Shown: positions 19,329 through 62,405, counted from the stretch's first letter. The stretch is 64,000 nucleotides of DNA from a virus (IMGVR_UViG_3300028608_000011:20008-84007), one strand, 5' to 3'. The notes: a model not told the origin generated them from the letters alone. Program-made: numbers and translations.

Positions 19329-19346
19329 CTTCGCTGATTAGCGAGG
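19329..19346. promoter_or_regulatory. Palindromic operator-like motif, copy 1 (CCTCGC-TAATCA-GCGAAG on - strand)
   Basis: One of six intergenic copies; 20 nt upstream of sbcC. Confidence 0.65.
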
Positions 19347-19523
19347 TTACATTGATTTGATGGCGTCAGCTACAGCCAAGGAAAGGGGATGAGGGTTGCG
19401 ATTGGTTCTAGTTATTGAACCAATCAGCTGCTCAAGCTTGGCCAGTTTGGCTTCAGACCACCCGCACTGTGCGAATTTATTGAACAGTGCGGGGTGATCT
19501 GTGGGCACCCAGCCCACGTTCAC
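19347..19523 (-). CDS. Small hypothetical protein (58 aa, MNVGWVPTDH...), not in the ORF track
   Basis: GTG start overlaps the TGA of the upstream MazG-like gene; fills the gap exactly. Confidence 0.45.
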   Translation of the reverse strand: MNVGWVPTDHPALFNKFAQCGWSEAKLAKLEQLIGSITRTNRNPHPLSLAVADAIKSM

Positions 19524-20116
19524 AGGGCCTCCATTGCAGCCATGTAATCGCCGAAGTCCTCGCCCTGGTGGTGCGTGTAGGACAACTTCTTGATGAACGC
19601 CTTCTGGATCGCTGCGTCCGCAGCCTGCGCCACTTCGGCGTCGACTTCCACGCCTTGGCCCAGCTCCGGCAAGTCAATGTCGATCAGCATGGCAGCTGCC
19701 TTGACGTCGAACAGCTCGCGGATCAGCGCCTGGCGATTGGTCTCTTGGCTGTGGCCATACGGGCTGACGCTTTCGAAGCCGTGGCGGAGGATCTTGCCGA
19801 TGACCTGCACCACCTCGCCGCACTCTTCCATCAGGATGGCCAGGCGCTCAGCCTGCGCCGGTGACAGCCCGTTGAAGTGGGCGTCGGCCAGCTGACCAAT
19901 CCACGGCGCTGGCTCCTCGCTCTGCGGCCGCAGGAACAGCTCAGCCTTGCCAGCTGCCCGCTCCAGACGCTCGATGTCACCCTCCGGCAGGATGCCTTTG
20001 CTGGACAGTGTGTCCACCTCGTCGATCAGCTCGTCGAGGATGTTGTCGACCTTGTCGACGGCGCCCGGAATGCCCTGAGCGATGTTGCAGTAACCGTTGA
20101 ATCGGAAATTATTCAT
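19520..20116 (-). CDS. MazG-like nucleotide pyrophosphohydrolase domain protein
   Basis: ILMEECGEVVQVIGKILRHG ... RELFDV (EExxE..ExxD). Confidence 0.7.
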   Translation of the reverse strand: MNNFRFNGYCNIAQGIPGAVDKVDNILDELIDEVDTLSSKGILPEGDIERLERAAGKAELFLRPQSEEPAPWIGQLADAHFNGLSPAQAERLAILMEECGEVVQVIGKILRHGFESVSPYGHSQETNRQALIRELFDVKAAAMLIDIDLPELGQGVEVDAEVAQAADAAIQKAFIKKLSYTHHQGEDFGDYMAAMEAL

Positions 20117-20852
20117 GAGTTTTCTCCGGTGCGGCGAGTAGTGGGTTGATGCGGCTTTCCAGCGCAAGCTTCAGGGCTTCAGGCGGCTGTCCGAAGAAGT
20201 CGTGCATACGCTGGCCGATGCCTTCGATGGACGCCTTGAACGCTGCACAGGCAGCCTCCGCTTCGGCACTCCACACGATGGTCTGCCCAGCGTGGAAGCG
20301 GTCGTTGCTGAAGTTGGTGGTGCTCAAAGTTTCCTTCTCGTGGTCATCGGCGTCTTCGACGATCTCCAGCTCGTACAGCTTGTTGTCCACCAGATAACGG
20401 ACGCCGTAGTGGAAGCCGAGCACGGGAATCTCTTGGAACGACGGCTGCCCTTTGGATACCGAACGACCATCTGCGTCACGGGCAACGTAGGCCACGGTAT
20501 AGGCGATGACCTTGACCCGCGAGGCATGCAGCACCCGCTCATAGAACTCGCGTCCAATCGCACGCAGCAACTTTTCCATGGTGTCCAGGCTGGACTTGGT
20601 GCGGACGAAGTAGGTGCCGGTCTTTGGGTCTCGGTCGATAGGCTCCTGCCGGAACAGCGGGATGTAGCTGCCGAAGAACTTGGCGTAGTGGTCAGGCATA
20701 GCTGCCACAAACGACGTGTCGCCGCGCGGGTCGAGGTAAATCGCTGTCTTGCCCTGAATGTAGTTAGGCTCTCGACCAATGCAGTCCTCGAAGTAGCCTA
20801 CGCCGACGTCCTTCAGCTTCTTGTACGGAGCTGGGAATGGCTTATGGCTCAT
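20109..20852 (-). CDS. Hypothetical protein
   Basis: 247-aa ORF overlapping both neighbours in the operon. Confidence 0.75.
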   Translation of the reverse strand: MSHKPFPAPYKKLKDVGVGYFEDCIGREPNYIQGKTAIYLDPRGDTSFVAAMPDHYAKFFGSYIPLFRQEPIDRDPKTGTYFVRTKSSLDTMEKLLRAIGREFYERVLHASRVKVIAYTVAYVARDADGRSVSKGQPSFQEIPVLGFHYGVRYLVDNKLYELEIVEDADDHEKETLSTTNFSNDRFHAGQTIVWSAEAEAACAAFKASIEGIGQRMHDFFGQPPEALKLALESRINPLLAAPEKTHE

Positions 20853-21934
20853 GCGTTCACCTTCTGTACCAGTTCAGCGAAGAGAGGGGCGAGGTCGCTG
20901 CCTTCCAGATCGCGTGCAATCCGGGTCTGCAGATCTTCGGCGACCACACCCTCGATGTCGGTGTCCACGTCCTTCAGGGAGTCGAGCAGCTCGACCTTGT
21001 TGCGCACGGCGAACAGGTCGTTGCAAGTCTGCAGCTCAGTGCCTGCCGGGCCGCAAGCTTGGTACTCGCCGGCCTTCCAGATCTCGCGGATGAACTCGCT
21101 GACCTCCACCGCGCTGGACACGCTCTCGGCGCCGGTGACGTCAACGAACTGTACGCCTCTGAGATCGGGGATATCGCCGCCCAGCTTGATCTCGCAGTAG
21201 CTCTGTGTCTCCGACCAGATCAGCTCTTTGGTCAGCGTGGCGGTGTCCAGCTCCAGGTGGTAGATGAACTTGTCGCCGATGTCGTGGAAGCTGGTAGGGT
21301 GAGTGTTTCCCAGCACCACGACCTGGCCGCCGAGGTCTGTCGAACCATTGTGCTCATGGCCGATGAAGATGTAATCGAACGATGCGATCAACTCTTTGGC
21401 CAGGTCACGGCTCAGGTTAAGCGTGCTGTCCTCGGTGTTAAGCTCGAAGTTGTAGTTGCAGTGCAGGAACAGGTAGCTGGCCAGGCCGTCACGGTGCGCC
21501 GCTGCGTGCTCTGCTGCCTGGCGCATCGCGACTTCGAAAGTCTCTTGGCTGGCGTGGTGCGGCACGAAGTACAGCGACTCGTGGCAATCGAAGAACGGAT
21601 CTGTCAGGTTTGGCACCGCGATGATCGGTGCCCCCATGTCTCGGATCGCCCGAAGCGAGGTCACAGTGCCTTCGCGGTTGGTCTCATCGTGGTTGCCCGC
21701 CAACGTCCAGCGGCAGCCGCTGGCCACGTTGAACCCCTGCACGATGACCTCTTCGCTGTTGAACGACTTGTCGAACAGGTCGCCAACACAGATCAGCGGG
21801 TTGGTCGCGGTGTTGACGATGGTCATCGCTTGGTCGTACAGCGCCTGCTTCAGCCTGGCCGAAGACTCCCGAGTGGTGTGCGCTGCCCGGGAAGTCCCCA
21901 GATGGGGGTCGGTGAAGATGGTGATGTTTTTCAT
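20849..21934 (-). CDS. sbcD: SbcD/Mre11-like metallophosphoesterase nuclease
   Basis: TDPHLG, VGDLFD, AGNHD, FLH, GHEH motifs. Confidence 0.92.
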   Translation of the reverse strand: MKNITIFTDPHLGTSRAAHTTRESSARLKQALYDQAMTIVNTATNPLICVGDLFDKSFNSEEVIVQGFNVASGCRWTLAGNHDETNREGTVTSLRAIRDMGAPIIAVPNLTDPFFDCHESLYFVPHHASQETFEVAMRQAAEHAAAHRDGLASYLFLHCNYNFELNTEDSTLNLSRDLAKELIASFDYIFIGHEHNGSTDLGGQVVVLGNTHPTSFHDIGDKFIYHLELDTATLTKELIWSETQSYCEIKLGGDIPDLRGVQFVDVTGAESVSSAVEVSEFIREIWKAGEYQACGPAGTELQTCNDLFAVRNKVELLDSLKDVDTDIEGVVAEDLQTRIARDLEGSDLAPLFAELVQKVNA

Positions 21935-22047
21935 TGAAACAGTCCTTTCACGAAATGGTGAAGTGCAGAAAGGAGTGGGATCGCCGTGAACACGATGATC
22001 CCCTCGAGAATGAACAGCGCGAGTTTCTTCTTGACGTCGTTGGTCAT
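21931..22047 (-). CDS. Small membrane peptide (38 aa, MTNDVKKKLALFILEGIIVFTAIPLL...)
   Basis: KKK followed by one TM; stop overlaps the sbcD ATG; GGA-rich RBS. Confidence 0.5.
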   Translation of the reverse strand: MTNDVKKKLALFILEGIIVFTAIPLLSALHHFVKGLFQ

Positions 22048-22096
22048 GGTTCCATCCATTCAAGGTTGGGGCAGCGCGCTGCCCCGGGCTTTACGG

Positions 22097-23272
22097 TCAG
22101 GCGTTCTTGTCCGATTCCCAGCACTTCGATACCGGCAAGTTGGGGATGCCGTCCGGCGTGAAGCCGAAGTGGCGAACCACGTTGCGCTGGCCGACGTAGG
22201 AGTCACGCGCTTCCCACTGTGCGTTCTTTTGGTCTTTGGTGCCGTGGGCGGTAGCCTTGAAGGTACGGCCGGTGCCGTCGCCGACGTCCATTACCCAGAC
22301 AGGGACGCGGAGGTAGCCGGTGACAACGCCGTCTTCATCGCGGATCTCGTAGGGCGTGCCTTCCTCGTAACCGGTGACGGTGTACTCGTGGTCTTCCATG
22401 TCCTTGATCTTCAGCAGGCCCGTGCTGCGTTTACCATCGAGGTAGCCGCTGTCACCGTGGCGAACGATGCTGCCCTCGTAACCCTGCTCAAGGTACTGCT
22501 GGTGCAGATGCTTGGCGCCTTCCAGGCTGTCAACGCGCACCGTCGATACCAGCTTCAACGGCGAGCTGACGGTGGAGTGGGTTACCTGGTACGGAGTCTG
22601 CCCGAGAATGGCAGCCACGCGGGCATAGCGGTCGCTGAACTGGTCACCGGCGACCATGTCGTAGATGTGGTATTCGATCACCGCGGACTCTTCGCGAGGA
22701 TCCTTGATCAGGCTGCCGATCTCTTGCAGCGAGATCCCGTGGCAGTACAGCTCACCGTCAAGGTGCACGTCGCCGAGAAGCGCCAGGGCTTCAGCGATGT
22801 GAGGCAAGTTGATCGGCTTGCCGTTGCGGCTGTACATCAGGCCGTTCTTCGACAGGCAGCGGTGGCCATCCAGCTTCGGCTGCACGAAAGCGTTGCTCCA
22901 GTCCACCTTCTCCGGCTTCACCTTGTCGATGGGGTGGGCCAGCATTGGCATTTCATTGCCGCTTGCGTTGGTGGCCGGCGCGGTGGCTGCTTCCTCGGTT
23001 TCAACGTAGCCCTTGTCGAGCTGTTTTTTCCAGCGCGACTCGGCTTCAGCGATCGCTTGCTGTGCCGGAGTGGTCTCGTTGGCTTTGCCGATATTCACTC
23101 CCTTCACCGCAGTGTTCTTCTCGACCGCCGCGCCGTCCATGGTCTTGGCGAACGTAATGTTCAGCGCTGCTTTGCCGTCTTCCAGCTCTCGGGCTTCCAC
23201 CTTCCACCAGCCCGTGGATTTGCCGTGGTTCTTGTACAGCGTCTTGCTCGACAGCGTTTTGAAATCAGTCAT
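22097..23272 (-). CDS. ATP-dependent DNA ligase
   Basis: QPKLDGHR (KxDG), LDGELY, YEGSIVR, LLKIK, C-terminal OB domain. Confidence 0.93.
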   Translation of the reverse strand: MTDFKTLSSKTLYKNHGKSTGWWKVEARELEDGKAALNITFAKTMDGAAVEKNTAVKGVNIGKANETTPAQQAIAEAESRWKKQLDKGYVETEEAATAPATNASGNEMPMLAHPIDKVKPEKVDWSNAFVQPKLDGHRCLSKNGLMYSRNGKPINLPHIAEALALLGDVHLDGELYCHGISLQEIGSLIKDPREESAVIEYHIYDMVAGDQFSDRYARVAAILGQTPYQVTHSTVSSPLKLVSTVRVDSLEGAKHLHQQYLEQGYEGSIVRHGDSGYLDGKRSTGLLKIKDMEDHEYTVTGYEEGTPYEIRDEDGVVTGYLRVPVWVMDVGDGTGRTFKATAHGTKDQKNAQWEARDSYVGQRNVVRHFGFTPDGIPNLPVSKCWESDKNA

Positions 23273-23297
23273 CAGTCCATACCCCAAAAATTAGAAA

Positions 23298-23315
23298 CCC
23301 CGCTACTTAGCGGGA
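23298..23315. promoter_or_regulatory. Palindromic operator-like motif, copy 2 (TCCCGC-TAAGTA-GCGGGG on - strand)
   Basis: Variant copy upstream of the ligase, overlapping the resolvase stop. Confidence 0.5.
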
Positions 23316-23828
23316 TTTGTTCAGTGTATCCGCATGTGAAGGTATGCGGAAGTAGTCAGAGATCAGATCAACCACACGCTGCCTTTGCAGCTTGTTGATG
23401 ACCCCCACATTTGCCCAGGTGGCGAGCAGGTGGCGTTTGTCGATCCGCGCTGTGTCGTGTACGGCGATGCCGTCCCACAGCTGGATCACGCCGTTCTGCG
23501 CGTCCCAGAACAGGATGTAGTAGGGAATGCCCAGCAGGAACCTGAACCGGGCGATCGCTCCACGCTGCGCCGGCCGAACCGCGGCCTTGGGCATCGTGCT
23601 GTGTTCCTCACTGGCTTTCACCTCGAGGAAACACAGCCTCTGGCCGTCCTGCAGGTTCTGACACCCTGCAGGCAGGCCGAGGAGGTAATCGCTGGGCTGC
23701 TCAGCAACGATGGAGCCGGCGGCCCCGGAGTCCGAGAGGCGGTGGTAGCTGACAAGGCGCTGATCAAACAGCATCTTGAACACCTGCACCATTTCCTTCT
23801 CGAACACCTTCCCGATGCTTGCAGCCAT
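23307..23828 (-). CDS. Holliday junction resolvase (PD-(D/E)xK, RecU/D14-like)
   Basis: GKVFE, PSDY, FLEVK motifs. Confidence 0.75.
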   Translation of the reverse strand: MAASIGKVFEKEMVQVFKMLFDQRLVSYHRLSDSGAAGSIVAEQPSDYLLGLPAGCQNLQDGQRLCFLEVKASEEHSTMPKAAVRPAQRGAIARFRFLLGIPYYILFWDAQNGVIQLWDGIAVHDTARIDKRHLLATWANVGVINKLQRQRVVDLISDYFRIPSHADTLNKSR

Positions 23829-23830
23829 GG

Positions 23831-24397
23831 TCAGCCTTCCTTGAGCTGGTCGATCAACCCCATCAGGCTGATGTCGAAGTCGGTCAGCGACCCGTCGTTG
23901 ACGATGGTGTGGGTGATGTAGGAGCGAGCAATACCCTTCTCGCTGACATGCCCCTCAAGGCCTACGGCGGTCTTCACCTTCTCCACCAGGCTGTGGTGCT
24001 CCGGCCGGACGATCTCGATGATCACCCCGCCATTGAGCGTGATCCACTCCGCCTCGGAGTCGAATCGCACATCGCTGAGCACCATGCCGTCGATAGCCGG
24101 TAGGCTGTTGATCTCCTTCCAGCGCCTGGCCACCAGATTCACCCAGATCTGTGGGTTCATCAGCTCCCGGCCCCACTCGGTGCCGAGCGTCTGCATCATC
24201 ACCCGGTACGACTTGCAGGTTTCAGGGCAGATGTCCGAGCGATCGCCTTCGTGAAAGTGATCGCCGAAGACCGACTTCAGCATGGTCTTCAGCGGCTCCG
24301 CGAAAGCGTACTGACTGAGCGCCAGGTGTCGGGCCAGATAGCGCGCTGCGTGATCTTTACCCGACCTGGCCAGGCCGGTCACGCCGAGCAGCATCAC
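23831..24397 (-). CDS. Deoxynucleoside monophosphate kinase
   Basis: GLARSGKD, FAEPLK, MQTLGTEWGR, SDVRF, HVSE, NDG. Confidence 0.92.
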   Translation of the reverse strand: MMLLGVTGLARSGKDHAARYLARHLALSQYAFAEPLKTMLKSVFGDHFHEGDRSDICPETCKSYRVMMQTLGTEWGRELMNPQIWVNLVARRWKEINSLPAIDGMVLSDVRFDSEAEWITLNGGVIIEIVRPEHHSLVEKVKTAVGLEGHVSEKGIARSYITHTIVNDGSLTDFDISLMGLIDQLKEG

Positions 24398-25140
24398 AGC
24401 GGCTGCTCAACGCGGAGTTTCAGGGCCTGTGTCAGCTCATCGCTGAACAGCATTTCGCACTTGTCGCTGAGCAGCCACTTGCAATAGTCACGGCCGAGGT
24501 TCTTCACCTTGCTGCCCTTGTGCTGGCCGAAGCCGATCTTCATTTCCAGCGTGCCGTCGTCACCCTGCATCCAGGCCATCAGCTGGTCGAGGTTCTCGAC
24601 CTTTGCCCAGCCGAACAGCGGCTTGATGCAGATCAGGGTGCCTTCAACGTCGGCGAAGGCGTCATGCGCCTTGCCCAGCGGTTCGCCCACCAGGTGCTCG
24701 TAGAAGTGAACCAGCTTGGCGCTCGGCCACTTGTGTTCGCTCTTGAGCTTTCGTGCAGCCTTCATCAGGTCGATGGACTTCGGTGCACGAAGGCCGACCC
24801 GCGCTGCAATCCGGTTGTCGAACGAGCCGCTGTTGTAGCCGATCACGGCATCCAGCTTCATCTCGTTGACGGTTTCCATCTGCTCGCGCAGATACTCTTC
24901 CCACGGCTTTTCATCGATCAGGTCGTGGGCGTAATAGCCGTGAACTTTCGAGGCTTCCGGGTGGATCTCCTGCCCGGGGTTCAACAAGGTCACGTCCTTG
25001 TCGTGGATTTCAAACTCACCATTCTGGTGAACGGTCACGATACACAGGGCTGACTGCAGAACGCCGCAGGTTGCGGCATCCACCCCCGTGGTTTCGTAGT
25101 CGTGCGCTAATGCCTTGACGCTCTGTCCATTGAAGCTCAT
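24394..25140 (-). CDS. DEDDh 3'-5' exonuclease (DnaQ/ExoX-like)
   Basis: DYETTG, GYN..FD, AHDAFADV, C-terminal FGQHKG. Confidence 0.88.
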   Translation of the reverse strand: MSFNGQSVKALAHDYETTGVDAATCGVLQSALCIVTVHQNGEFEIHDKDVTLLNPGQEIHPEASKVHGYYAHDLIDEKPWEEYLREQMETVNEMKLDAVIGYNSGSFDNRIAARVGLRAPKSIDLMKAARKLKSEHKWPSAKLVHFYEHLVGEPLGKAHDAFADVEGTLICIKPLFGWAKVENLDQLMAWMQGDDGTLEMKIGFGQHKGSKVKNLGRDYCKWLLSDKCEMLFSDELTQALKLRVEQPL

Positions 25141-25436
25141 TTGGCTTTCCTTTCTGCTGTGAAGAAGTCTTTGTGGATGGCCGGCCATTTACGGCGGAAC
25201 GCCTCAATCCGCCTAGCCATGAGTGACTCGTTGTGCTGGGAGTCAGCGAGCTGCTTGCGCAGCTCACGGACTTTTGCAGCGGTTTCCCGCAGGCGCTGGT
25301 TCTCCACCAGCAGTCGGGTGTTGTCGGCGAGCAGCTGATCAACATCAATCGGCTTGGCTGGTGCGGGATCCGGGAGGTTGAGAACAGCCTCCCGAAATTT
25401 TTCCCACCAGCCGCCCTTAGTCGGCGATGTTTTCAA
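25137..25436 (-). CDS. Hypothetical coiled-coil protein (start uncertain)
   Basis: Fills the gap between polA and the exonuclease; ATGA overlap at 3' end. Confidence 0.55.
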   Translation of the reverse strand: MKTSPTKGGWWEKFREAVLNLPDPAPAKPIDVDQLLADNTRLLVENQRLRETAAKVRELRKQLADSQHNESLMARRIEAFRRKWPAIHKDFFTAERKAK

Positions 25437-28400
25437 CCTCCACCTCTTCGTCTTCGTCGGCTTCGATGTAGGTGGCCTTGCGGATCGGATCGAACGGTTC
25501 CAGCACGTCCTTCTCCCAGATGTCGCGGCCTTCTTCCAGCGCCTCTGCGACAAATTTGGCCACGTTCTCTGGGCTGATGTCACGGCCCAGCTCCTGCACT
25601 CTACCCCAGTCACAGCCGATAGAAAACTCCGGTACTTGTCGAACTTTGTGCCCCGGAGGGGTTGACTCTTCCATGAACCGTCCGACCTCTTGGCAATACG
25701 CCAGAACGTCGTCCTTGTGTACCCACGACACGACTTCATCGTAGATCGGCGCGAAGAACACCATCCGCAGGCGATCCATGATCCCGCTGTCGGCGATCCG
25801 GGTCAGCACGATGCGCAACATCTGCGCGGCGCTGCCCTGGATGGTGGCGTTGGTGCCTTGGCGATGCTGCCGAGCGACCTTGCCGCCGTCGTTGCTGAAA
25901 ATGTCCGGCGTAGCGTGACGCTTGGTGCCGAACGCTGTCAGCGTGAAGCCGTTCTTCTCCATGAAGCGGGCTGTCTCTTCCTGCCACGGGCGGATCCGCC
26001 AGTACAGGGCCATGGTCTGCTCCAGCAGCTGTTTCGCTTCCTCGAATGGTGCGATGAGGTTGCGAGACAGGGTGCCAGCCCCGGCGCCGTAAGCCATGCC
26101 GAAGTTGATCGTCTTGGCCTTGCCGCGAATCGCCACCGCCAGCTTGTGCAGAGGGTGATCCTTGGTGTCCTTGGCCAGGCAGAACTCCATGTAGTCCATC
26201 TTCGCGATACCGGCGCCAGTCATACTGTGCAGGTCTTTCTCGTTGCCTGGTTCATACACCGACAGCATCACCGGGTCGTTGGCGAGGTTAGCCATGAGAC
26301 GGATCTCTTGGCCGTTGAAGTCGATCGCCACACACAAGTAGTCCTTGTTGGGTGGAATGTAGATCGACCGCATGACCTTGCCTTCGCCTTTCTTCGGCAC
26401 CTGCAGGCTGTTCGGCGCGCTCGCCGTTGGCCGGGTGGTGTCGGTGCCCGCGTCGGTAACGATCGGGTGAACGTTGCCGTCTCGGTGACGCCACATCGGG
26501 TACTTGTCGTGGAACAGGCTGCAGCGTGTGCTGGCCGACTTCACCACTCGCAGTACCTGCAGCGCTTCCCGTTGCCAGCAGTCGTTCGGCACATCGTTAG
26601 CCAGCGCGGTGAGGATCGCTTGCTCATCGGTGGATGGGCCTGCTTCCTTGATGCCGATGGACAGCCGACCTTTGCCTGGCGACTTGCCACGCAGCCGCAC
26701 CGGCACGCCAATCTTGCAATACAGCAGTTGCTGCATCTGTGCCGGGCTGCCCACGTTCAGTGGATCGCCGAACTGCACAGTCCGCGGCTCAACCCCGGCC
26801 AACCGCTGAATCAGCTCAGCCAGCTTGTCAAAAGTCTTTTCCGCGGCTTCCAGCTTGGCACCGTCGGTGTCTTCTGCCGACTCCGACTCTTCTGCTTTGC
26901 GACGTAGGTCACCCATTTTCAGGCAGCCGGCGTTCACCGCCGCGGCGATCATATCGACAACTTCGGCCTGCTCCTTGGTGAGTTTCCACTCATCGCGGAA
27001 GCCTGCCGCGCCCGCCGCGTCGAACCACTCGGTGATTGCTTTGAGCGTTACCTTCTCGATCTCAGGCAACCCCACCGCCTTGAAGGCCGGATTCAACTGC
27101 AGAGGCGTGAAGGCAAACGTCGGCATCACCGACTCTTCGCGGTACGGCGTGTACTGGCAGGCTGCTTCGACCTTCTTGCGCCACTCTGCGACCTTGGCCC
27201 CGGCCTGATCCACGTCACCATCAGCTTTCTTCTTGGCCGAGCGGAACATGTAGTCCTTCTCGGCTTCGATCAGCGACTTGGCGCCTTCCGTGATGTTGCC
27301 GGTGACGTTCTTCTCAAGGATCTCGCGAAGCTCGATCATGCCGACGCGGATGGTTTCCAGATCCTTGGTATGGATGCGCTTCTGCAGTGCCCAGTTCATG
27401 TTCGAACCAGCCACGTAGGCACGCTGCAGCACTTCGGTTGGGCGCACTGCCCACTGCTGGTAGAAGTCCCACTGCCCATCCAGTTGCAGCAACAGCTGCA
27501 GCAGGTCGTGCAGGTGGCCGGTCACCAGGCTGTCATCGGTGCCGTAGGTGAAGGTTTCATCGGCGGTCAGCTCGCACATCATCCGCACGCCTTGCCCACC
27601 GTTACCGGCGGCCAGCGTGTCGGCGAAGGAGGTCTGCTCGTAAGCCAGGTAGTTCAGCGAGATCGCCTTCAGGCCCGCTTCCATGTTTTCGTCGTAGAAC
27701 CGCTGCATCATCCGGGTGTCTTGGATGTTTTTCAGCCAGACACCGAGGTTGGTGTGCGAGACCACGCCTTCAAACAAGGCGTTGTGGGCGATCCGGGTAG
27801 TGTGCTCGCCGGCGAATTCCAGAATTTCCAGAATCACCGAGTTGTTCACGTTGGCGCTATCGCGGTGATCCACTGGAATGTAGATCACGTTCTCCAGATG
27901 TCGGCCGAACTGGAACGAGGCACCTGCCAGCTCCTGGCTGAGCATGTCGACGAAGTTGTTGCCCGCCTGAGACGCGCGGCGGAAGTCAGCGATCGGGTTC
28001 TTGTCCGAGGACTCATAGTCGAACGCGGTCTTGTCGCCTGCTTTGATCTCCTCGAAGATCGCCTCGCGCATCTCGGGCCAGTTGCTGGCGTCGACGATCA
28101 TCGGCACCGGCATCAGGTGGCTGTACTCAGCCTCCCACATATCCTCGCAGCCAACTTCCTTGAGGCAGTTGTACAGCTCGGTGGCGTTCGGCACGCGCTT
28201 GTGGATCTTCGGCTTGGTCAGCTTGCGCTGGCGAGGTTTCCAGCACAGGTCTGGCTTCAGGTTGGCCAGGCGCCAGCCCATCTTCCAGTCCGCGAAGTTC
28301 TCCTTCAACTTGATCAGGATCTTGTCGCCGGAGGCTTCAATGGTCTCGTCGAGCAGGTCGGTGTTGCCACTTTCGACGATCTCGCACAGCTGCTCCAGGC

Positions 28401-54581: not shown

Positions 54582-54582
54582 G

Positions 54583-55338: not shown

Positions 55339-55595
55339 GTCGCGTTCCTGTTTTCGATGGCCGCCTTGATCTTTTCGATCGTGTCCGGGTGGGCGTAGTA
55401 GGTGCCGTTGAAGCAGATGATTTCATCGCTGGCTACCCACTTCGTCACGTACTTGGTCTTCTTGAACGGCTGCCATGGCCAGCTGAACAAGCGCTCTTTC
55501 CAGCTGCGCTCAATTTCTTCATTTCTGGGCACGCTGAGCAGTTCGTTCGGGTAAAACCGCTGCCCGTTGAGGATGGTGCTAAGTGGCTGCGGCAT
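55320..55595 (-). CDS. Hypothetical protein
   Basis: RSWKERLFSWPWQP motif; TAATG coupling. Confidence 0.7.
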   Translation of the reverse strand: MPQPLSTILNGQRFYPNELLSVPRNEEIERSWKERLFSWPWQPFKKTKYVTKWVASDEIICFNGTYYAHPDTIEKIKAAIENRNATCRNSP

Positions 55596-55981: not shown

Positions 55982-56784
55982 GGAGCCTCCCAGACGAAGC
56001 ATCCGGTGGATTCGATGGCGGCTTTGAACTCCGCCACCATGTTCGGCAGGCGAGCCTCCAGCAGGGCTGTCAGCTCTTCCTTGGGCATGCTGAGTTGCTC
56101 GTCGGTGGCGTCCGGCCAGATCCCGCAGTTGCGGGCGGCGGCGAAGTCGCGCTCTTTACCCTCGCCAACCTTCCAGCACGGCTCCCAGAACAGGCGAGGC
56201 ACCGTCGATGGCATCTGCGCCGAATCGAGCATGTCCTGCAAGCGATAGAGCGGCAAGTTGCTGATGTCTTCATCGGCACTGAGCGCGGTCTTCAATGCGC
56301 AGCCTGTGGCGTCGGCACGCAGGCTCCACACTGGCTCCTTCGACCGCCCGTTGACGATCTGGCGTTTCTCGCCTTTGGCAAGCCCCCAGCAATCTTTGTC
56401 GCTGGCGTGATACACAGTGTTGGCCACGTAGTGCATCGGGCTGTCGCTCGACATCAGGTGCCACTTGATCAGGTGCTTCAGCTCCGGGAAGACCTTGGCG
56501 ATCTCTTCGTGGCAGCACCCGCCGAAGTCCCAGTCTCGGGACTTCCAGTGGTCATACCAGCCATGGCCAGTCACCGCGAAGCTGTTGTGGCCGTTCTTGC
56601 AGTTGTCGTCGAAGCGCACCTCGGCGTGCATCAAGATCTTTTCGCCTTTCACCGTCTTGGTGCGGCGCTCGCTCACCCACTTCTGATGCATAAACAGGCC
56701 GGGCTTGCCGTCACGGCTTTGGCTGCCCCACGGTACAACGGTCAGCGTGCCAGGCACGCCGCAGAGAGTGGCTTTGGTTTCCAT
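55966..56784 (-). CDS. Conserved phage hypothetical protein (paralog of next gene)
   Basis: RFDDNCKNGH, GGCCHEEI..FPEL..LIKWHL..PMHY. Confidence 0.75.
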   Translation of the reverse strand: METKATLCGVPGTLTVVPWGSQSRDGKPGLFMHQKWVSERRTKTVKGEKILMHAEVRFDDNCKNGHNSFAVTGHGWYDHWKSRDWDFGGCCHEEIAKVFPELKHLIKWHLMSSDSPMHYVANTVYHASDKDCWGLAKGEKRQIVNGRSKEPVWSLRADATGCALKTALSADEDISNLPLYRLQDMLDSAQMPSTVPRLFWEPCWKVGEGKERDFAAARNCGIWPDATDEQLSMPKEELTALLEARLPNMVAEFKAAIESTGCFVWEAPCATS

Positions 56785-56796
56785 GATTGCTCCGAG

Positions 56797-57339
56797 TTAC
56801 GGGTGAAGTTTGAGGCCGGTAGCGGCCAGGTCGTCACGAAATTGCTGTTGGAGGGAAGGCAGGCGATCGCGCAAGGCCTGCGCCAGCACCGAAGGCTCTC
56901 CTAGGATCACCGACTCCGGCGCGTCCAGCCATTTGGCGGTCTTGCGAGCGAACTCAGTGTTGCCTTGCGCTGCCCAGTACAGTGTGTTGTCGAGGTAGTG
57001 CATCGGCTCGCCGTCAGATGACAGGTGCCACTTCACCAGATGGGCCAGCTCCGGCCAGAACTCTGTGGCCTGCTCAATATCCATAGGCCCGGTCACGCCA
57101 TCGAAGTCGCGGACGATGACAAAGGTGTTGGAGAGGTTGCTGAGGTGGCCACGAGCATACGAGATGCACACCTCGAAGCGTCCGCCCTTGCCGGGGAAGT
57201 CCCGGTACGCCACGAACATCTGTGGCTCCCACAACGTCCCGCCTGCTGACTTTCGCGACAGCAGGCCTTCGATGCCGAGTAGCGTGTGAGGAACCGCGAT
57301 GCTGTTGGCCTTTAGAAAGGCTGATTTGAAAGTGTTCAC
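56797..57339 (-). CDS. Hypothetical protein (paralog of previous gene)
   Basis: WPELAHLVKWHL..PMHYLDNT; AGGAG RBS. Confidence 0.72.
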   Translation of the reverse strand: MNTFKSAFLKANSIAVPHTLLGIEGLLSRKSAGGTLWEPQMFVAYRDFPGKGGRFEVCISYARGHLSNLSNTFVIVRDFDGVTGPMDIEQATEFWPELAHLVKWHLSSDGEPMHYLDNTLYWAAQGNTEFARKTAKWLDAPESVILGEPSVLAQALRDRLPSLQQQFRDDLAATGLKLHP

Positions 57340-57740
57340 GCTGACTCCTTGGCCAGTTGCTTTCTGACCTTGCTGACCAGCCGCCGGCTGATCGGAATGA
57401 TGTGAGGGCAGGCGCCGAGTCGGTCACCGAAGCGCACGCTGGTGATCACCTCGAACACCCAGTGGCTGCCTTTTCGCCAGTTGCTGCGCCCGGGCAGAAT
57501 CCCGGTCATTACCAGATAAGCGCGGTGGACGCGCATCACCTTGTCGCCCAGCGTGGCCTCGATCTCCACCAGCGGGATGTCGAGGGTGAACGAGCCGTTG
57601 CTCTTGGTGTGGGCCACGACCGCTTTGTGCTCGGCCTGGAAGAACGCGATGTTGTCGATCGGCGTCCTGATGAAGACGCCCAACCTGTACGCTTCGATGT
57701 ATTCAGGGGTGACGGCGTCGGGGTGTTTGAGGTTCGGCAT
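57336..57740 (-). CDS. Stand-alone LytTR DNA-binding domain protein (AlgR-like)
   Basis: IAFFQAEHK.V, LDIPL..E..G...RVHR.YLV, ISRR.V..VR. Confidence 0.82.
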   Translation of the reverse strand: MPNLKHPDAVTPEYIEAYRLGVFIRTPIDNIAFFQAEHKAVVAHTKSNGSFTLDIPLVEIEATLGDKVMRVHRAYLVMTGILPGRSNWRKGSHWVFEVITSVRFGDRLGACPHIIPISRRLVSKVRKQLAKESA

Positions 57741-58032
57741 AGGGCAGTCCTATGAGCAGGGCGTTCACGCACCGCAGCAGTTGGAGGTGGTACTTCATGG
57801 TCTTCGGCACGCAGTTGTCGTCCAGCCGTTTCGGTGTGAGGCTGCGGGACTTCGCCCACCATGGGCTGGCCCTGCCTTCCCACAGCGCGCTGACCAGTTC
57901 CTTGTGGGAGCGGCCCACCCAGTCTTCCAGCGCCGGGCTGGCGTAGGTGATCACGCCGTTGAGCTCGTACCAGTGGGAGGCGAGAGGGCGGCCTTCTTTA
58001 CCCTTCTGCCAGTAGACTGTGTAGTGGGCCAT
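57703..58032 (-). CDS. Hypothetical protein
   Basis: Tiled ORF. Confidence 0.6.
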   Translation of the reverse strand: MAHYTVYWQKGKEGRPLASHWYELNGVITYASPALEDWVGRSHKELVSALWEGRASPWWAKSRSLTPKRLDDNCVPKTMKYHLQLLRCVNALLIGLPYAEPQTPRRRHP

Positions 58033-58035
58033 GTC

Positions 58036-58344
58036 TCACCCCCAGACCACAAAGCGGTGCGGGTGCCATTCGTTGGGGAAGGTGTAGCTGTGCTCGGCTA
58101 CGTTGTGTTTGAGGCGGCCGTCCACTACCCGAACATCCGGCAGTAGGTCAACCGTCTCTACCCAGCATCCCTTAACGCCTACCAACTTGGCCATAGGCTT
58201 GAGCTGCAAAGTGCCTTGGACGTCGAAGTCCATCACTATCTTGCTCTGGTCGTCCACCGTAGGAACCATGTTGATGGGGCTGATGACGGTGCCGGCCGGC
58301 ATCAGCGAGAGCTGGGCCAGGGTGATGATGCGGAGTGGTTTCAT
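58036..58344 (-). CDS. Hypothetical protein
   Basis: TGATG coupling; L..MPAGTV. Confidence 0.65.
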   Translation of the reverse strand: MKPLRIITLAQLSLMPAGTVISPINMVPTVDDQSKIVMDFDVQGTLQLKPMAKLVGVKGCWVETVDLLPDVRVVDGRLKHNVAEHSYTFPNEWHPHRFVVWG

Positions 58345-58982
58345 CAGATGAACCCCTTGAACGCCACGTCGATGCGCAACGGGCGCGATTCATAGAAGAA
58401 CGTGCCGTTGCAATACGGGCACGTCGCCAGGCTGTCCCACATCTCGCCGCTACCCTTGGCAGGGCGGGCGATTTTCAGCCGGTGATCACAGCCGCCCGTG
58501 TTGGGGCAGTCAATCTCGTGGTGGGACTTGGTCAGGCAGCGCTGCCAGTAATCCTCGTAGCGCTGGATGGCGGCGGCCTTGTCTTCAGCGCTGCGCAGAT
58601 CCTGCGAGGTGGCCATCTCGCGGGGCAGGTCGCGCTGCTGGCTGACCTCGTACTCGGCGTCCATCATGTTCCAGCGCTTTTCAATGGCCGGGCCGGCGAT
58701 GCAGGCGCTGTAGCCCGCCTGAATGCACTCGTGCAGGGTCTGGTCGGGGAAGAAGCCTCGCGACCAGCCATCGGCGATGATGGTCTGCATCTTGGTGCCG
58801 GGCGCCCAGGCGCCGGCTGCCATTGCCAGTCGAGTGGCGATGGCGGGAAGCACGAGTCGGCCCGTTACTGTCGGCGCTACCGGCGGCTTCTGAATTCCTA
58901 GCCCGTTGCACGCTGTGCAAGTGTGGCCGGCACCGTCGTATTCGATCTTGGTGCCGTTGCAGGTTTTGCAGATGTTGTTCAT
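58344..58982 (-). CDS. Zinc-finger hypothetical protein
   Basis: CKTCNG..CTACNG and CP..C..CPYC. Confidence 0.7.
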   Translation of the reverse strand: MNNICKTCNGTKIEYDGAGHTCTACNGLGIQKPPVAPTVTGRLVLPAIATRLAMAAGAWAPGTKMQTIIADGWSRGFFPDQTLHECIQAGYSACIAGPAIEKRWNMMDAEYEVSQQRDLPREMATSQDLRSAEDKAAAIQRYEDYWQRCLTKSHHEIDCPNTGGCDHRLKIARPAKGSGEMWDSLATCPYCNGTFFYESRPLRIDVAFKGFI

Positions 58983-59452
58983 GGCTGCTCCCGGCTCTTG
59001 TATTTGTCGATTTTCGTAGTCAAGGTCGAAGTAGCGGGTGGCGGCGCCACGTACCCGCTGTGCTTGTCCGCGTCGTAGGCGAGCATGTCAGGCTCCTCAG
59101 CCAGCTCACCGATCAGCCAGCGCACGCAGTCCGCTTCGTAGCGCACCCGGTCGGGGTACTCGGAGCGGGCGATGGTGAACCCGTTGGTCATTTCCTGCAG
59201 GAACGTACCGCCACCTTTGCGCATGAGGATGGCGGTGAAGTTGGACTTGCCGTTTGACTCGGGCATTGGCCCTTCCCAGACGGTGAGGATAGGGCGCTCG
59301 GTCAGGTACTTCAGACCCAGGTCTCGAAGGCGCTGGATCTCGTCCAGCAGCTCCTGCACCACGCTGGCGGTGAAACAGCTGTCCTGCGCCACCAGCTGGA
59401 TGATCTGGTCATGCCGGTGGGAGTCGAGCGGTTTGATAATGCGATCGGTCAT
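58979..59452 (-). CDS. Conserved phage protein (Ead/Ea22-associated type domain)
   Basis: LLDEIQRL; W.GPMPESNGK.NFTAIL..RSEYPDRVRYEAD. Confidence 0.7.
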   Translation of the reverse strand: MTDRIIKPLDSHRHDQIIQLVAQDSCFTASVVQELLDEIQRLRDLGLKYLTERPILTVWEGPMPESNGKSNFTAILMRKGGGTFLQEMTNGFTIARSEYPDRVRYEADCVRWLIGELAEEPDMLAYDADKHSGYVAPPPATSTLTTKIDKYKSREQP

Positions 59453-59628
59453 GGCTTGGCTTCCAGTTTGGCGATCAGCGCCTTGTTGTTGGCGGTCAGG
59501 ATGTCCTTGGTCTCGCGGATCATCAGCGATTCCACGATGTTCAGGCAGTCCTGATACGAATAGTCGATGTTGAAGTGCCCGCGGATGATCGCCACGAGCT
59601 GCTCCGGGGTGTGGGCTTGGATGTTCAT
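59449..59628 (-). CDS. Small hypothetical protein
   Basis: ATGA coupling at both ends. Confidence 0.6.
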   Translation of the reverse strand: MNIQAHTPEQLVAIIRGHFNIDYSYQDCLNIVESLMIRETKDILTANNKALIAKLEAKP

Positions 59629-59984
59629 GCTCGGGCATCCTCTTCCAGCTGGTGCATCACCCACTCCCAGTAGCCGAGCAGGCTTTCCTCCCGATCGACT
59701 GCCTGGCGCCACTGGTACTGCTGATAGTCGGGGTGCTCGCTGGCAAACATCTTGCGCAACTGAGTTGGCGTGAGCGCTGCGGCGATCTTTGACAGGTCGA
59801 TTACCTCGCCGTCGTCCGATTCCCACGATGGCTCGCCGTCCTTCTCAACCTGAAACACGCAAGCCGTACCTTCGCGGCCTTGCTGGATGCGGCTCTGGAA
59901 GTAGTCGGCCGCCGTGTTAATGGCGGCATCCACGGCAGTTTCTGCCTCGACGTTGATCTCCCACTTTACGAGATACTGGTTCAT
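59625..59984 (-). CDS. Hypothetical protein
   Basis: WEINVEAET..DAA and HPDY..WR..V...LGYWEWV modules; AGGAG RBS. Confidence 0.7.
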   Translation of the reverse strand: MNQYLVKWEINVEAETAVDAAINTAADYFQSRIQQGREGTACVFQVEKDGEPSWESDDGEVIDLSKIAAALTPTQLRKMFASEHPDYQQYQWRQAVDREESLLGYWEWVMHQLEEDARA

Positions 59985-59996
59985 GCTGTTTCACTC

Positions 59997-60494
59997 CTAC
60001 AGGATCCCCTTGAGGATCAGTGATGCGTAAGCGTCAGGTTCATTGCAGCCGTCGGCGATTTGTTGCAGCGCGGCGCGCAGGCGGTCTGTCTCTTTGACCC
60101 GCTCCTCGGCGGCGTGCACGGTCTCGCCGCGCAACTCCACCTCGATCTTCTGACGCATCTGCTCCCGATCGTAGGCGGTGGTTTCTACGCCTTGACCGAC
60201 ACTGTTGAGCGTCCAATCGGTGAGGTAATGCTCGGCCAGGTTGAGCAGGTGGATCAGGCGTTCGACCTTCACCACCTGCTCGCGGTACAGGGTGTACTGC
60301 GGCGTCGGCCACATGGTGTGCTTGTTCTTGTCGCCGTCCATGCACACCATGCAGTTGTAGGTCAGCGGCTTGGGGCCATCGCTGGCCGAGGCACCTCCCT
60401 GCCCGCAGAGAATGCAGCGGTACTGCTGGCCCCTGTTCGGGGCCGCGTAGAAAGACTGCCAGCCGTTTTCGGCGTGCCCGATGGGGTAGGTCAT
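59997..60494 (-). CDS. Hypothetical protein with zinc finger
   Basis: CILC..CMVC; coiled-coil C-terminus. Confidence 0.7.
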   Translation of the reverse strand: MTYPIGHAENGWQSFYAAPNRGQQYRCILCGQGGASASDGPKPLTYNCMVCMDGDKNKHTMWPTPQYTLYREQVVKVERLIHLLNLAEHYLTDWTLNSVGQGVETTAYDREQMRQKIEVELRGETVHAAEERVKETDRLRAALQQIADGCNEPDAYASLILKGIL

Positions 60495-60772
60495 GGCTCC
60501 CTCCGAAGTACATGCTCAGGTTTCGGCCGCCGTCCTTCACCGAACAGCACAAGGCGATCCAGCTGGCTGAGTTTCGCCAGCGCCTCGTTGCGCGCCACCT
60601 CGACGTCAACCACCTGCGGCTCGATCTTGTAGCGGCAGTCGATGCCGTACTTGCCTTGGGTTGCGGCCTTATCGAAAGAGGCGGACACCAGCGTTCCGCC
60701 TTTGTCGGTGTTGTCCATCCCGTCGACCCCGCCACCGGCGGAGAGAACGAGGTAAACGATGCGGTCGGTCAT
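60491..60772 (-). CDS. Hypothetical protein
   Basis: GAGGTG RBS; ALAKLS.LDRLVL. Confidence 0.7.
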   Translation of the reverse strand: MTDRIVYLVLSAGGGVDGMDNTDKGGTLVSASFDKAATQGKYGIDCRYKIEPQVVDVEVARNEALAKLSQLDRLVLFGEGRRPKPEHVLRREP

Positions 60773-60773
60773 G

Positions 60774-61880
60774 TCACTTCACCTCTTCGATGTCGCACTT
60801 GTCGATGCGGGTGGTGATGAATCCCTCGGTGCCGATGAAGGTGCCGACCTGCTGCAACCAGACCCAGTCACCCCAGTAGCCGCGGATGTCGCAGAGCACC
60901 GGGTCAAGGCGGCTGAAGCCCCATATGGTGTTGTGCGGGGTGACCAGCGCGCGGCTGCCTACCTCGGGCCAGACTTCTGGCGGAGTGATGGCAGGTTCTG
61001 CGCTAGTTAGCGCGTCTTCTGCGGTTGTGACGGCGGGAATCTCGGTCATCGCCGCGCTCGCAATTTCAGCGCCTTCCAGACCCAGCCAGCCGATCACGTC
61101 GGGCACCCCCTCCGGGTTGTCTCGCAGCCAGATCTTCAGGGCGTCCTTGATGCAGGCTGCGTGGCTGGCGTGACCACCGACGGTGAGGGTTCCGAGCGTC
61201 CAGCATTCGCCTTCACTCTTCAAGTTGGTGAACCGGAACCCTTGCTTGATCAGCATGCGCTTTATGGCGCCGAGTACCGGGCCTTCGGGGTTCATGTTGT
61301 GGCCCGGAAACTTGTCGGAGAAGGTTTCGTAACGCTTGGAGGGCTGGCTCTGGCTGTGCGGGCGCATCCGAGGATTGCGCGCCCAGACCTCTTCCATGGT
61401 GGTGATCGCGTCACGCCAGGCAGCTTCCTCGGTGGGGAACAACGCGCTGACCCGGTGGTTATGCTCGGCGCGCCAGTAGTGGGTTCCCTCGCCGATGGTG
61501 TGGGGCTCGACCTTGATGCCGGCGCTCTGCGCGGTGCGGATACCGTCGTACAGGCCGATGAGGTGCCAGTAGGCATTCTTCGCCGCGGCTTCCAGCGTGT
61601 GGAAATGCGACCCGGTCGTGCCGAACTTGGTCAGGTGATCCCAGCCCCAGCGCCGCTCGGCCACATCAAGGTTGTTGCCGTGATCGAAAGTGAACTCGAA
61701 GCCTTCCTTGTCCAGCAACACAAAGTGCTGCGGCATCGACGGGAAGTTGGGGTAGGTGCCGTGGAGCAGGTGCTGATCCATCTCGTCCTTGCTGGGGTAG
61801 GCGTGCTGCGAGGTGTAGGCGCGGTTGCGCCACAACGCGATGATGTTGCAATCCTTCAGGCGATGCTCGACTTTGCTCAT
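60774..61880 (-). CDS. Multidomain hypothetical protein
   Basis: 368-aa ORF with AGGA RBS. Confidence 0.75.
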   Translation of the reverse strand: MSKVEHRLKDCNIIALWRNRAYTSQHAYPSKDEMDQHLLHGTYPNFPSMPQHFVLLDKEGFEFTFDHGNNLDVAERRWGWDHLTKFGTTGSHFHTLEAAAKNAYWHLIGLYDGIRTAQSAGIKVEPHTIGEGTHYWRAEHNHRVSALFPTEEAAWRDAITTMEEVWARNPRMRPHSQSQPSKRYETFSDKFPGHNMNPEGPVLGAIKRMLIKQGFRFTNLKSEGECWTLGTLTVGGHASHAACIKDALKIWLRDNPEGVPDVIGWLGLEGAEIASAAMTEIPAVTTAEDALTSAEPAITPPEVWPEVGSRALVTPHNTIWGFSRLDPVLCDIRGYWGDWVWLQQVGTFIGTEGFITTRIDKCDIEEVK

Positions 61881-61895
61881 AATTCTTAGTCCTAA

Positions 61896-62366
61896 TTAAA
61901 TGCCCAACTCGTTGATATGGTTGACTATCTCCGGGAAATCCCGAGGGTAGTCCTTCCACAGTTCCTGATCCTTGCGGGTGTACCCGTACAGCTTCTGGGC
62001 CTCCCAGCGGATCCAGGTGCGCGCCTCCTCCTTGTCACGGAAGTGGCGGTAGATCTTGGCCAGCGCCGCGAACGACGCATCCCCGCGCGAGGTCAGGGGC
62101 AGGCCAAGGAACGCCGCGATGGCGCCCTCGGCCTTGAACCCGCCGTACTCGACAAAGCCGCGGTGGTTCCAGTGCAGACCCGCCTTGTGGAAGCGCGGAT
62201 CGTGCGAGGCGAAATACCGGAACAGCTCCTCCAGCATTTCGTGAGAGTGCAGGGTGTCCCCGTGCCTGCCGAGGTACACCTCATCAAACAGACAGTCCAC
62301 CATCCCCCAGTGATCTCGGATAATTGGCTGCGTGTGCATTGCTACGACCTTGGGAACCTCACCCAT
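61896..62366 (-). CDS. Hypothetical protein
   Basis: 156-aa ORF between intergenic gaps (start may be internal). Confidence 0.7.
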   Translation of the reverse strand: MGEVPKVVAMHTQPIIRDHWGMVDCLFDEVYLGRHGDTLHSHEMLEELFRYFASHDPRFHKAGLHWNHRGFVEYGGFKAEGAIAAFLGLPLTSRGDASFAALAKIYRHFRDKEEARTWIRWEAQKLYGYTRKDQELWKDYPRDFPEIVNHINELGI

Positions 62367-62387
62367 TTGTGAGGATTGGTTAGGTTA

Positions 62388-62405
62388 TCTCGCTCAATAG
62401 CGAGG
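62388..62405. promoter_or_regulatory. Palindromic operator-like motif, copy 6 (CCTCGC-TATTGA-GCGAGA on - strand)
   Basis: Intergenic, 21 nt upstream of the 62366 start. Confidence 0.65.

Follow-up and report, generated by a model that had tools for sequence, protein, structure and literature searches.

Conserved stem-loops at the gene junctions of a phage related to PMBT3 and Lana: a family that possibly acts on RNA

The stretch of DNA analyzed here, referred to as the window, comprises 64,000 nucleotides (nt) and corresponds to bases 20008–84007 of an 84,007-bp phage record in IMG/VR with about 60% G+C. Structural genes occupy its + strand up to ~16.4 kb, and the replication and early genes form a 47-kb array on the − strand. 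A short palindromic element recurs at gene junctions in this leftward array as well as in the remainder of the genome, and this element is the subject of our analysis. The phage holds ~120 genes in two long arrays with very few recognizable promoters, and an element family of this kind may bear on how their expression is shaped. A sequence-only reading of the window had listed six copies of the palindrome CCTCGC-N6-GCGAGR on the − strand (sites 1–6) and had proposed them as operators of one dimeric regulator. All six strings are present where they had been placed, and the idea of a recurrent, conserved and non-random palindromic element at gene junctions of both gene arms has held up. In the following, coordinates refer to the window unless they are given as genome positions, which refer to the whole record.

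The nearest named relatives are three Pseudomonas siphophages, which match a 20-kb query with 78.5% identity across 63% (PMBT3), 80.9% identity across 45% (Lana), and 73.8% identity across 21% of its length (UAntarctica). Together with the window phage and two more whole relatives from IMG/VR (G001, 83,664 bp; G002, 87,406 bp) they make up a comparison set of six genomes, to which we added the metagenome contig L095. The latter was the one informative fragment among the 80 of a ligase-anchored search of metagenome contigs; the corresponding search of viral contigs yielded one close relative among 80 loci kept, and the hairpin was present only in L008 of the 16 loci inspected. A scan of viral contigs for the exact pattern returned eight stretches: five in records of PMBT3, Lana and G001, one in G002, and two in unrelated 36%-GC contigs, which we take to be chance matches. 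The gene models stem from crude callers that over-extend starts and miss genes with low G+C at third codon positions, and long “gaps” are probably coding.

The recurring unit is not a 6-N6-6 palindrome: It consists of the stem top CGCY-N4-RGCG with a 4-nt loop and an outward extension of 1–8 site-specific pairs. The resulting stem is GC-rich and 5–12 bp long, and its apical pairs are usually C-G, G-C, C-G, and Y-R. The tetraloop follows the consensus A-A-(not A)-Y, with A in 27/33 and 22/33, not-A in 32/33, and Y in 31/33 distinct copies. The stem is often followed by a tail (U/A)(U/A)UC(Y), which is only 70–76% conserved within the family (TTATC at WIN_A, G001_A, UAnt_A, UAnt_1, and Lana_1; TATC at site 4 and Lana_A; TTTC at site 2; AATC at sites 1 and B). 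The stem begins a few nt past the upstream stop codon or encloses it: At sites 1, 2, 5, and 6, at the copy preceding dcm, and at copy A, the stop lies 0–12 nt from the stem or within the loop. As in intrinsic terminators, the hairpin is GC-rich, co-oriented with a gene, and located just downstream of it. In total, the phage has ~8 good and ~6 degenerate copies distributed over both gene arms. Five of the good ones lie in the window, namely sites 1, 2, 4, and 6 as well as the dcm copy.

A covariance model was built from 35 copies (33 distinct) from five genomes and one contig, with G002 excluded. In the window genome it finds eight places at an expectation (E) value below 0.01, seven of which belong to the training set, while the eighth is located within an open reading frame (ORF; 60989–61024). 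In the left-out G002 it finds ten places at E < 0.01, and by eye all of them lie at gene junctions or after terminators. The E values of model matches range from 1e-4 to 1e-8. The family 36-mers fold with a mean of −10.92 kcal/mol compared with −4.98 ± 2.7 kcal/mol for shuffles, and an Rfam search of the window at the gathering threshold returned 0 matches.

All window members are read on the − strand. Site 1 (19329–19346) has a 5-bp core UCGCU/AGCGA with the tetraloop AAUC and is positioned 3 nt past the upstream TAA and 20 nt before the start of an sbcC-like gene; its gap folds with −9.6 kcal/mol (z = −1.1), and the model assigns it 31.5 bits. Site 2 (23295–23318) forms a 10-bp stem AAAUCCCGCU/AGCGGGGUUU with the tetraloop AAGU, which contains the stop codon of the resolvase gene, and with the tail CUAAUUUUU. 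At −16.2 kcal/mol (z = −2.1) and 33.9 bits it is the sole family member that passes the terminator scan. The dcm copy, which the sequence-only reading had overlooked, is the hairpin GACGCC-CAGU-GGCGUC at 48803–48820, 15 nt before the start of a dcm-type methyltransferase gene (24.6 bits, E = 8e-5). Site 4 (49207–49234) is the longest family hairpin: Its 12-bp stem GGAUACUUCGCC/GGCGAGGUAUCU(C) with the tetraloop AGUU reaches −29.1 kcal/mol (z = −3.8; 1/200 shuffles as good) and 31.6 bits. A sigma54 reading of this site (TGGC-N9-TGC, by eye) was dropped, PMBT3 being without it, and a GTG mini-ORF that follows the site is not conserved. Site 6 (62389–62404) carries a 6-bp stem CUCGCU/AGCGAG with the tetraloop AUUG, 7 nt past the upstream TAA (−8.8 kcal/mol, z = −2.8; 24 bits). 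The six palindromes had been placed 20–47 nt upstream of a start codon, which is correct for sites 1–5 (20, 25, 47, 31, and 40 nt); for site 6 it depends on the start chosen, with 21 nt to an ATG without a Shine–Dalgarno (SD) sequence or 48 nt to an SD-led ATG. The same gap contains a second, unrelated hairpin CCUCAC-AAAUGG-GUGAGG (62357–62374, − strand), whose counterpart in Lana is CCCCAC-AUCU-GGGG and of which G002 has an identical copy. Its loop holds the ATG without SD, in frame with the downstream gene, which the ORF list over-extends; this gene more likely begins at the SD-led ATG at 62339.

The elements are retained at orthologous junctions across a clade of soil Pseudomonas phages. 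In PMBT3 and Lana, a copy precedes sbcC, the ligase gene, and the gene upstream of dcm, each time in the orthologous gap, the same junctions carry it in G001 and G002, and UAntarctica has it at three sites. Site 2 is conserved in 5/5 relatives, with the form CGGU/ACCG in L095; site 4 has orthologues in G001, PMBT3, Lana, and G002, the dcm copy is kept in the same four genomes, and site 6 recurs in G001, Lana, and G002, PMBT3 having no gap at that junction. The six-site set survives in part: Sites 1, 2, 4, and 6 are conserved at orthologous junctions in four to six genomes, whereas sites 3 and 5 are unsupported as palindromes. All sites other than site 5 are retained despite ~20–25% nucleotide divergence.

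What is conserved at these junctions is the pairing of the arms. Among the 33 distinct rows of the alignment, 72.7% of the cells are paired versus 65.1% after shuffling (0/500 shuffles reach the observed value), sliding the partners by 1–3 columns reduces pairing to 34–45%, and the covariation score is 0.272 versus 0.152 (again 0/500). Pair 12–25 occurs as UA in 16, CG in 5, GC in 2, and AU in 1 case. Pair 15–22 changes from CG to GC at three sites (UAnt_A, UAnt_1, and L095_2), which converts CGCU/AGCG to CGGU/ACCG; the flip at UAnt_1 lies in the stem of site 1, and in L095 the change in the 5′ arm affects an Arg codon synonymously. UAnt_2 retains CGCU/AGCG, so that two core variants exist within the UAntarctica genome. 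Further compensatory changes are found at the loop-closing pair of site 4, where PMBT3 has U-A in place of C-G, and in the stem after terL, where one position reads C-G in the window genome, U-A in G001, and G-C in UAntarctica. The loops vary freely among orthologues and show no internal covariation; at site 1, AATC of the window is replaced by ACTT (G001), GTTT (PMBT3), AACT (Lana and G002), and AGGC (UAntarctica). Likewise, the half-site sequence is not conserved across sites and genomes: The outer arms are site-specific, and only two pairs are invariant, which were fixed by the selection of copies. The covariation and the compensatory changes point to selection on pairing and therefore speak against a protein that reads fixed half-sites. 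For the same reason, and in view of stems that extend over 5–12 bp with site-specific sequence, the proposal of a sequence-specific operator for a dimeric regulator is not borne out.

The non-random aspects of the motif are its location and its conservation rather than its frequency. We compared the occurrence of CCTCGC-N6-GCGAGG with 100 dinucleotide shuffles of the window: At ≤1 mismatch there are 3 matches versus 0.59 expected (4/100 shuffles reach 3), at ≤2 mismatches 7 versus 7.21 (59/100 reach 7), and at ≤3 mismatches 46 versus 66.4 (100/100 reach 46), so that enrichment is absent at the two wider settings. This includes the tolerance used in collecting the six sites, as site 2 needs three mismatches, and 45 places besides it match at that level. 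At ≤2 mismatches, 6/7 matches lie in gaps, and the non-coding share of the leftward array is ~3–4%; gaps of ≥18 nt in this array amount to 1,287/45,066 nt in PMBT3 and 1,756/51,855 nt in Lana (~3%). The statement that coding sequences contain essentially no N6 partners holds at this tolerance, with one of the seven matches being coding (41671), and fails beyond it. The k-mers CTCGCT (13 vs 3.0) and TCGCTA (10 vs 2.3) are overrepresented in crude gaps, which is a weak signal as SD-like words rank higher and the genomes are related.

Sites 3 and 5 require separate consideration. At site 3, the proposed arms CCTCGC/CCGATG are unpaired; RNAfold predicts a hairpin at 32969–32994 (− strand), at the 5′ end of the leader of an SSB-like gene, in which GCGCUAGCGG pairs with UCGCUAGUUGC (its partner is also given as CCUCGCUAGUUGC). 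The sequence is identical in PMBT3 and Lana, and a single A-to-G change in G001 produces a G-U pair. The site has no covariance model match at E ≤ 10, its fold has z = −1.1, and it lies 7 nt past a sigma70-like promoter TTGACA-17-TATAAA (33003–33031, − strand) that is conserved in relatives. Site 3 is hence a promoter-proximal leader hairpin outside the CGCY-N4-RGCG family. Site 5 (54195–54212, − strand) is a degenerate copy with a 4-bp CUCG/CGAG stem and an 8-nt loop (z = −0.5; 10.6 bits, E = 4.4); the orthologous gap of Lana contains the good copy CCCGCU-AACC-AGCGAG, and the copy in G001 has decayed differently. The mismatches in copies 3 and 5 had been used as an argument against a hairpin, and this argument fails because copy 3 pairs in a different manner and copy 5 is a decayed hairpin that is intact in Lana. 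The gene after site 5 (53240–54154) encodes a 304-aa protein that matches the NMT1_3 family of periplasmic binding proteins barely above the threshold (27.9 bits versus a cut-off of 27), an unusual cargo in a lytic phage.

Besides the dcm copy, the earlier listing had passed over a coding copy and six copies outside the window. The coding copy (60989–61024, − strand; core CGCTAACTAGCG at 61001–61012) lies within a 368-aa ORF (60774–61880), was outside the training set, and scores 24.4 bits (E = 9e-5). It is read in frame as L-T-S and sits in a poorly conserved Ala/Thr/Pro linker, at which tblastn splits the relatives into two blocks; Lana has an intergenic copy at 78073, just beyond the end of the gene that matches the ORF. 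Judged from this arrangement, the data suggest that the 368-aa ORF may have arisen by gene fusion or extension across a former junction. Outside the window, copy A follows terL (genome 8927), copy B precedes a 53-aa gene (genome 4504), and degenerate copies are found at genome 1511, 5238, 5533, and 17709. In addition, the + strand ORF 13392–13817 contains a longer near-palindrome ATCGCTAATCAG|CTGATGGCGAT (13633–13660) that shares TCGCTAATCAG with the family.

By our reading, the leftward array of the window has ~17 real gaps, ~12 of which contain a hairpin: five belong to the family, two are canonical terminators, and the rest are unrelated GC stems. The canonical intrinsic terminators are a 9-bp GC stem followed by UUUUUAUU (30973–30993, − strand), which lies inside the array with the next gene ~14 nt beyond it and without a promoter, and the core CCGG-UGAUCC-UGCCGG within a longer stem (31952–31967, − strand), likewise followed by UUUUUAUU. 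In general, genes follow these terminators within ~14–40 nt with no promoter between. Downstream of terL, 4/6 genomes carry two family hairpins in tandem, and in 6/6 genomes a conserved TTGTAW-18-TAAACT follows before the portal gene, which corresponds to a terminator-then-promoter layout. The terL–portal block of all six genomes (genome 8950–9050) comprises AAAGAACCCTTGTAWTTCAG, an 18-nt spacer, and TAAACT-CGCGCC-A and can be read as a promoter of the sigma70 type whose discriminator is GC-rich. A further gap (39432–39496) shows a terminator-like hairpin (GGGAGGGCACGG ... CGTGCCCACCC) followed by the AT-rich run TATAAGTGTATAAATTTATAAGG before the next gene, a layout that also occurs in PMBT3 (56460–56523) and Lana (53005–53076); this may be an internal promoter.

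Promoters are otherwise scarce. A scan for sigma70-like promoters returned 0 in 44001–64000 and one, unrelated, in 16001–36000; the promoter upstream of site 3 is missing from the scan because the rule demands T at the last −10 position. The association of the palindromes with promoters that had been suggested is therefore limited to site 3, the only one of the six at a promoter: For 48 copies, −35 boxes 16–18 nt upstream of the loop hexamer reach ≥4/6 matches in 7/48 versus a background of 0.10 and are no more frequent than at random positions. Compared with TATAAT, the loop hexamers agree at ≤3/6 positions, and most of them have A in place of the expected T(−7) at their end. We rejected a sigma70 reading of the loop hexamer for the family, the −35 matches being as random, and kept it only for two copies with near-consensus promoters in which the hexamer serves as −10, namely genome 4372 (TTGACA-17-TAATCT) and genome 5220 (TTGACG-17-TAATCT). 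TANNNT hexamers in the 5′ flank were also discarded as −10 elements; their distances are inconsistent (0–10 nt), and they are partly stop codons. Downstream of the promoter at genome 4372, a strong terminator (4449–4477) follows after ~50–70 nt, an arrangement (genome 4372–4480) that would yield a short non-coding RNA. Between the divergent arms, ~1 kb of non-coding sequence (genome 2940–3940) harbors two tandem 28-nt repeats (~3050–3110) and three GTTAAAG(A/T)G...ATAAC-type repeats; this stretch has the appearance of an origin or of an early control region.

Going beyond the observed elements with their conserved and covarying arms, we infer RNA as the working molecule and tentatively favor, as a possible reading of these sequences, intercistronic stem-loops that act on RNA as attenuators or 3′-end protectors. 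If so, the two long, nearly promoter-less arrays would be transcribed as polycistronic RNA by the host RNA polymerase. The stem-loops would form in this RNA and would serve as weak terminators or attenuators and, after processing, as barriers to 3′ exonucleases, whereby attenuation or protection would set the relative dose of neighboring genes. The leftward leader contains a boxA-like CGCTCTTTAACAATC (− strand, genome 3600–3586, outside the window), which we take to match the boxA consensus and which would fit a modified polymerase that reads through many weak stops. The attenuator reading is supported because pairing is conserved over sequence, the loops are free, the folds are stable, G002 yields matches, and because the gap context, the layout after terL, the terminator-like site 2, and the precedent of phage phiKZ all agree with it.

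Several findings weigh against this reading. Only site 2 has a U-tract (≥5 T in 8), and sites 1, 4, and 6 as well as the dcm copy fail the scan; moreover, two copies come right after strong canonical terminators, where another terminator seems redundant. A strand bias of the kind expected for RNA is missing from the stems: The alignment has 16 cells of the G-U type and 21 of the A-C type, the sense strand gives the better fold in 15/35 copies and the antisense strand in 19/35 (means −10.92 vs −10.81 kcal/mol), and the conserved C-A mismatches at sites 1 and B are G-U pairs on the opposite strand. With few independent events (~7 vs 8) this test has low power, and it lends the RNA reading no support; because of the missing bias, a reading at the DNA level is still live. 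The covariation statistics include orthologues and are hence drawn from non-independent rows, and pairs 13–24 and 14–23 are uninformative because most copies were chosen by the pattern CGC-N6-GCG. Sites 3 and 5 and genome 1511, 5238, and 5533 have kept left arm and loop (CCTCGCTAATC, in three exact copies) but have no arm to pair with, and at genome 1511 the better arm is on the strand opposite to the local genes. Finally, the degree to which the apical CGCY/RGCG is shared goes far beyond what a generic hairpin requires and hints either at sequence-specific recognition or at common descent. A weak polarity exists, with A in column 18 in 22/33 copies versus the mirror T in column 19 in 11/33, and with T and C of the tail (columns 30–31) in 25/33 and 23/33 versus 18/33 and 19/33 for their partners; this polarity of loop and tail follows transcription on both arms, with genome 1511 as the exception.

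A live rival, which we nevertheless consider rather unlikely, is that the palindrome works as DNA and is recognized by a protein of the phage or the host, either as a global operator or roadblock or, in a variant, through a structure-preferring binder such as the HU/IHF-like protein of the phage. It draws on the symmetry of the strands, the apical sequence common to the copies, and the degenerate copies in which half of the element is conserved. C13, G14, C23, and G24 are invariant in 33/33 distinct copies, partly by selection, and copies overlap the −10/start region of sigma70-like promoters at genome 4372, 4470/4504, and 5220; fixed half-sites, in turn, would not lead one to expect compensatory changes, site-specific extensions, or two core variants in UAntarctica, and 0/5 good window copies lie at a promoter. 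As for a binding protein, 47 protein queries (37 against Pfam and 10 against PHROGs, with some proteins in both) revealed a LytTR domain protein (57336–57740, E = 6.2e-11), a DksA-like zinc finger protein (34719–34943), and an HU/IHF-family protein (PF00216; genome 5671–5961, E = 1.4e-15), the gene of which follows a strong terminator and the degenerate copy at genome 5533. None of the three is an evident reader of a 12–16 bp palindrome. LytTR domains are known to bind direct repeats, and the IHF consensus does not fit the sites. Among the regulators that had been put forward, the LytTR protein is real, and for the 81-aa ORF neither a family nor a fold relative could be detected; like the 116-aa gene after site 4, it is without family or protein-atlas relatives. 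No helix-turn-helix (HTH) or ribbon-helix-helix repressor and no stoperator-type immunity repressor (HTH plus stoperator domain) appeared in these Pfam and PHROGs scans, which cover about half of the small ORFs, and PMBT3 is reported as virulent/lytic, without repressor or integrase as far as the cited account goes (PMC8421299). A broader proposal, that one phage or host protein reads the apical CGCY-N4-RGCG hairpin or palindrome at ~10 junctions on both arms and acts there as a regulator that reads structure throughout the genome, be it a roadblock, an antiterminator loader, or an RNA-binding translational or stability factor, and thereby forms a palindromic lytic-phage counterpart of stoperators, is in our estimate unlikely.

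Could the hairpins instead be cassettes of promoter and terminator, similar to the promoter-early stem-loops (PeSLs) of T4-type phages, with the AT-rich loop hexamer as −10 and an additional role as recombination points for gene shuffling? The near-consensus promoters at genome 4372 and 5220 would fit, the latter copy sharing GTAACCTCGCTAATC with site 1, as would the order of stop, stem-loop, SD, and start that is described for PeSLs (PMC2839356), the two copies located just after strong terminators, and the conserved host RNA polymerase promoters of phage YuA, described as inactive without phage factors (PMC10914365). Given that the −35 matches and loop hexamers of the family do not resemble promoters, and that the gaps at sites 1, 2, 4, and 6 are too short for a downstream promoter, we regard this as quite unlikely for the family; the cassette describes a few copies outside the window. 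A DNA hairpin or cruciform in replication, recombination, or packaging, or functionless palindromes kept by template-switch correction, appears improbable. Template-switch correction of quasi-palindromes could be an alternative source of the covariation, the lack of strand bias fits a two-strand structure or a homogenizing mutation, and the orientation of transcription equals that of forks leaving the iteron-rich region near genome 3 kb. Stems of 5–7 bp are, however, short for cruciform extrusion, the strict placement at gene junctions next to stop codons is left unexplained, and site 5 decays in two lineages, yet the other sites are kept across the same divergence. That unrelated intergenic sequences merely resemble each other by chance is extremely improbable: The consensus counts lie at or below chance at 2–3 mismatches and sites 3 and 5 are non-members, but the orthologous conservation in up to six genomes, the covariation, the E values, and the ten matches in G002 refute chance for sites 1, 2, 4, and 6.

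Under the preferred attenuator reading, the family would mark probable points of attenuation, processing, or protection and would do so at precise positions in PMBT3 and Lana, both of which are cultured. Should the elements prove to be compact terminators that lack a U-tract, the small set of Pseudomonas terminator parts would grow; if a protein reads them, a lytic phage would possess a global regulator that is new. For annotation, true gene boundaries are marked by the family model, which also flags one position, 61001, at which an intergenic element now lies inside an ORF.

Intrinsic terminators and intercistronic hairpins that stabilize mRNA, such as those of T4, are well known. The elements resemble the former as GC-rich, co-oriented stem-loops just past a stop codon, with a U-rich tail at site 2, and differ from them in that 4/5 window copies are without a U-tract and the shared apical sequence is not generic. 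With the stoperators of Cluster A mycobacteriophages (L5 gp71 type) they have in common short sites in short intergenic spaces that correlate with the direction of transcription; stoperators are, however, described as asymmetric 13-mers of conserved sequence that are bound by a monomeric immunity repressor with HTH and stoperator domains in temperate phages (PMC9283540), whereas we find a covarying, dyad-symmetric palindrome of weak polarity in a phage whose relatives are reported as virulent. The stem-loop of PeSLs is situated either between the −35 and −10 boxes or on top of the −10 (PMC2839356) and has been shown to terminate or attenuate transcription (PMC2839356, PMC4122927). The repetition between small genes in the order named above and the overlap with the −10 at genome 4372 and 5220 recall this type, unlike the polyG/polyC stems of PeSLs and their consensus sigma70 promoter with an AT-rich upstream tract, which the six window sites do not have. 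In kind, the element is familiar. For this clade it has apparently not been described, as judged from the main texts of the papers on PMBT3 and Lana, although the supplementary ARNold terminator list of PMBT3 may already include these hairpins. The terminators of phiKZ, which were mapped by ONT (Oxford Nanopore Technologies)-cappable-seq, are made up of a stem with a W-rich loop of 4 nt, followed by TTAT ~2 nt after the stem (PMC10914365). Both motifs combine a GC-rich stem (7–8 bp in phiKZ) with a 4-nt A/T-rich loop and, in part of the copies here, with a short tail of the (T)TAT(C) type where a long U-tract would otherwise stand, and both are shared-sequence elements that recur at many junctions of one phage. 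The stems differ, with CCYCCCC/GGGRRGG in phiKZ and CYCGCY/RGCGRG here, and so does the setting, as phiKZ has ~60 or more copies and its own RNA polymerases, compared with ~8–14 copies here and no RNA polymerase gene seen in this phage. As far as this comparison can tell, the phiKZ terminator motif is the nearest experimentally mapped parallel.

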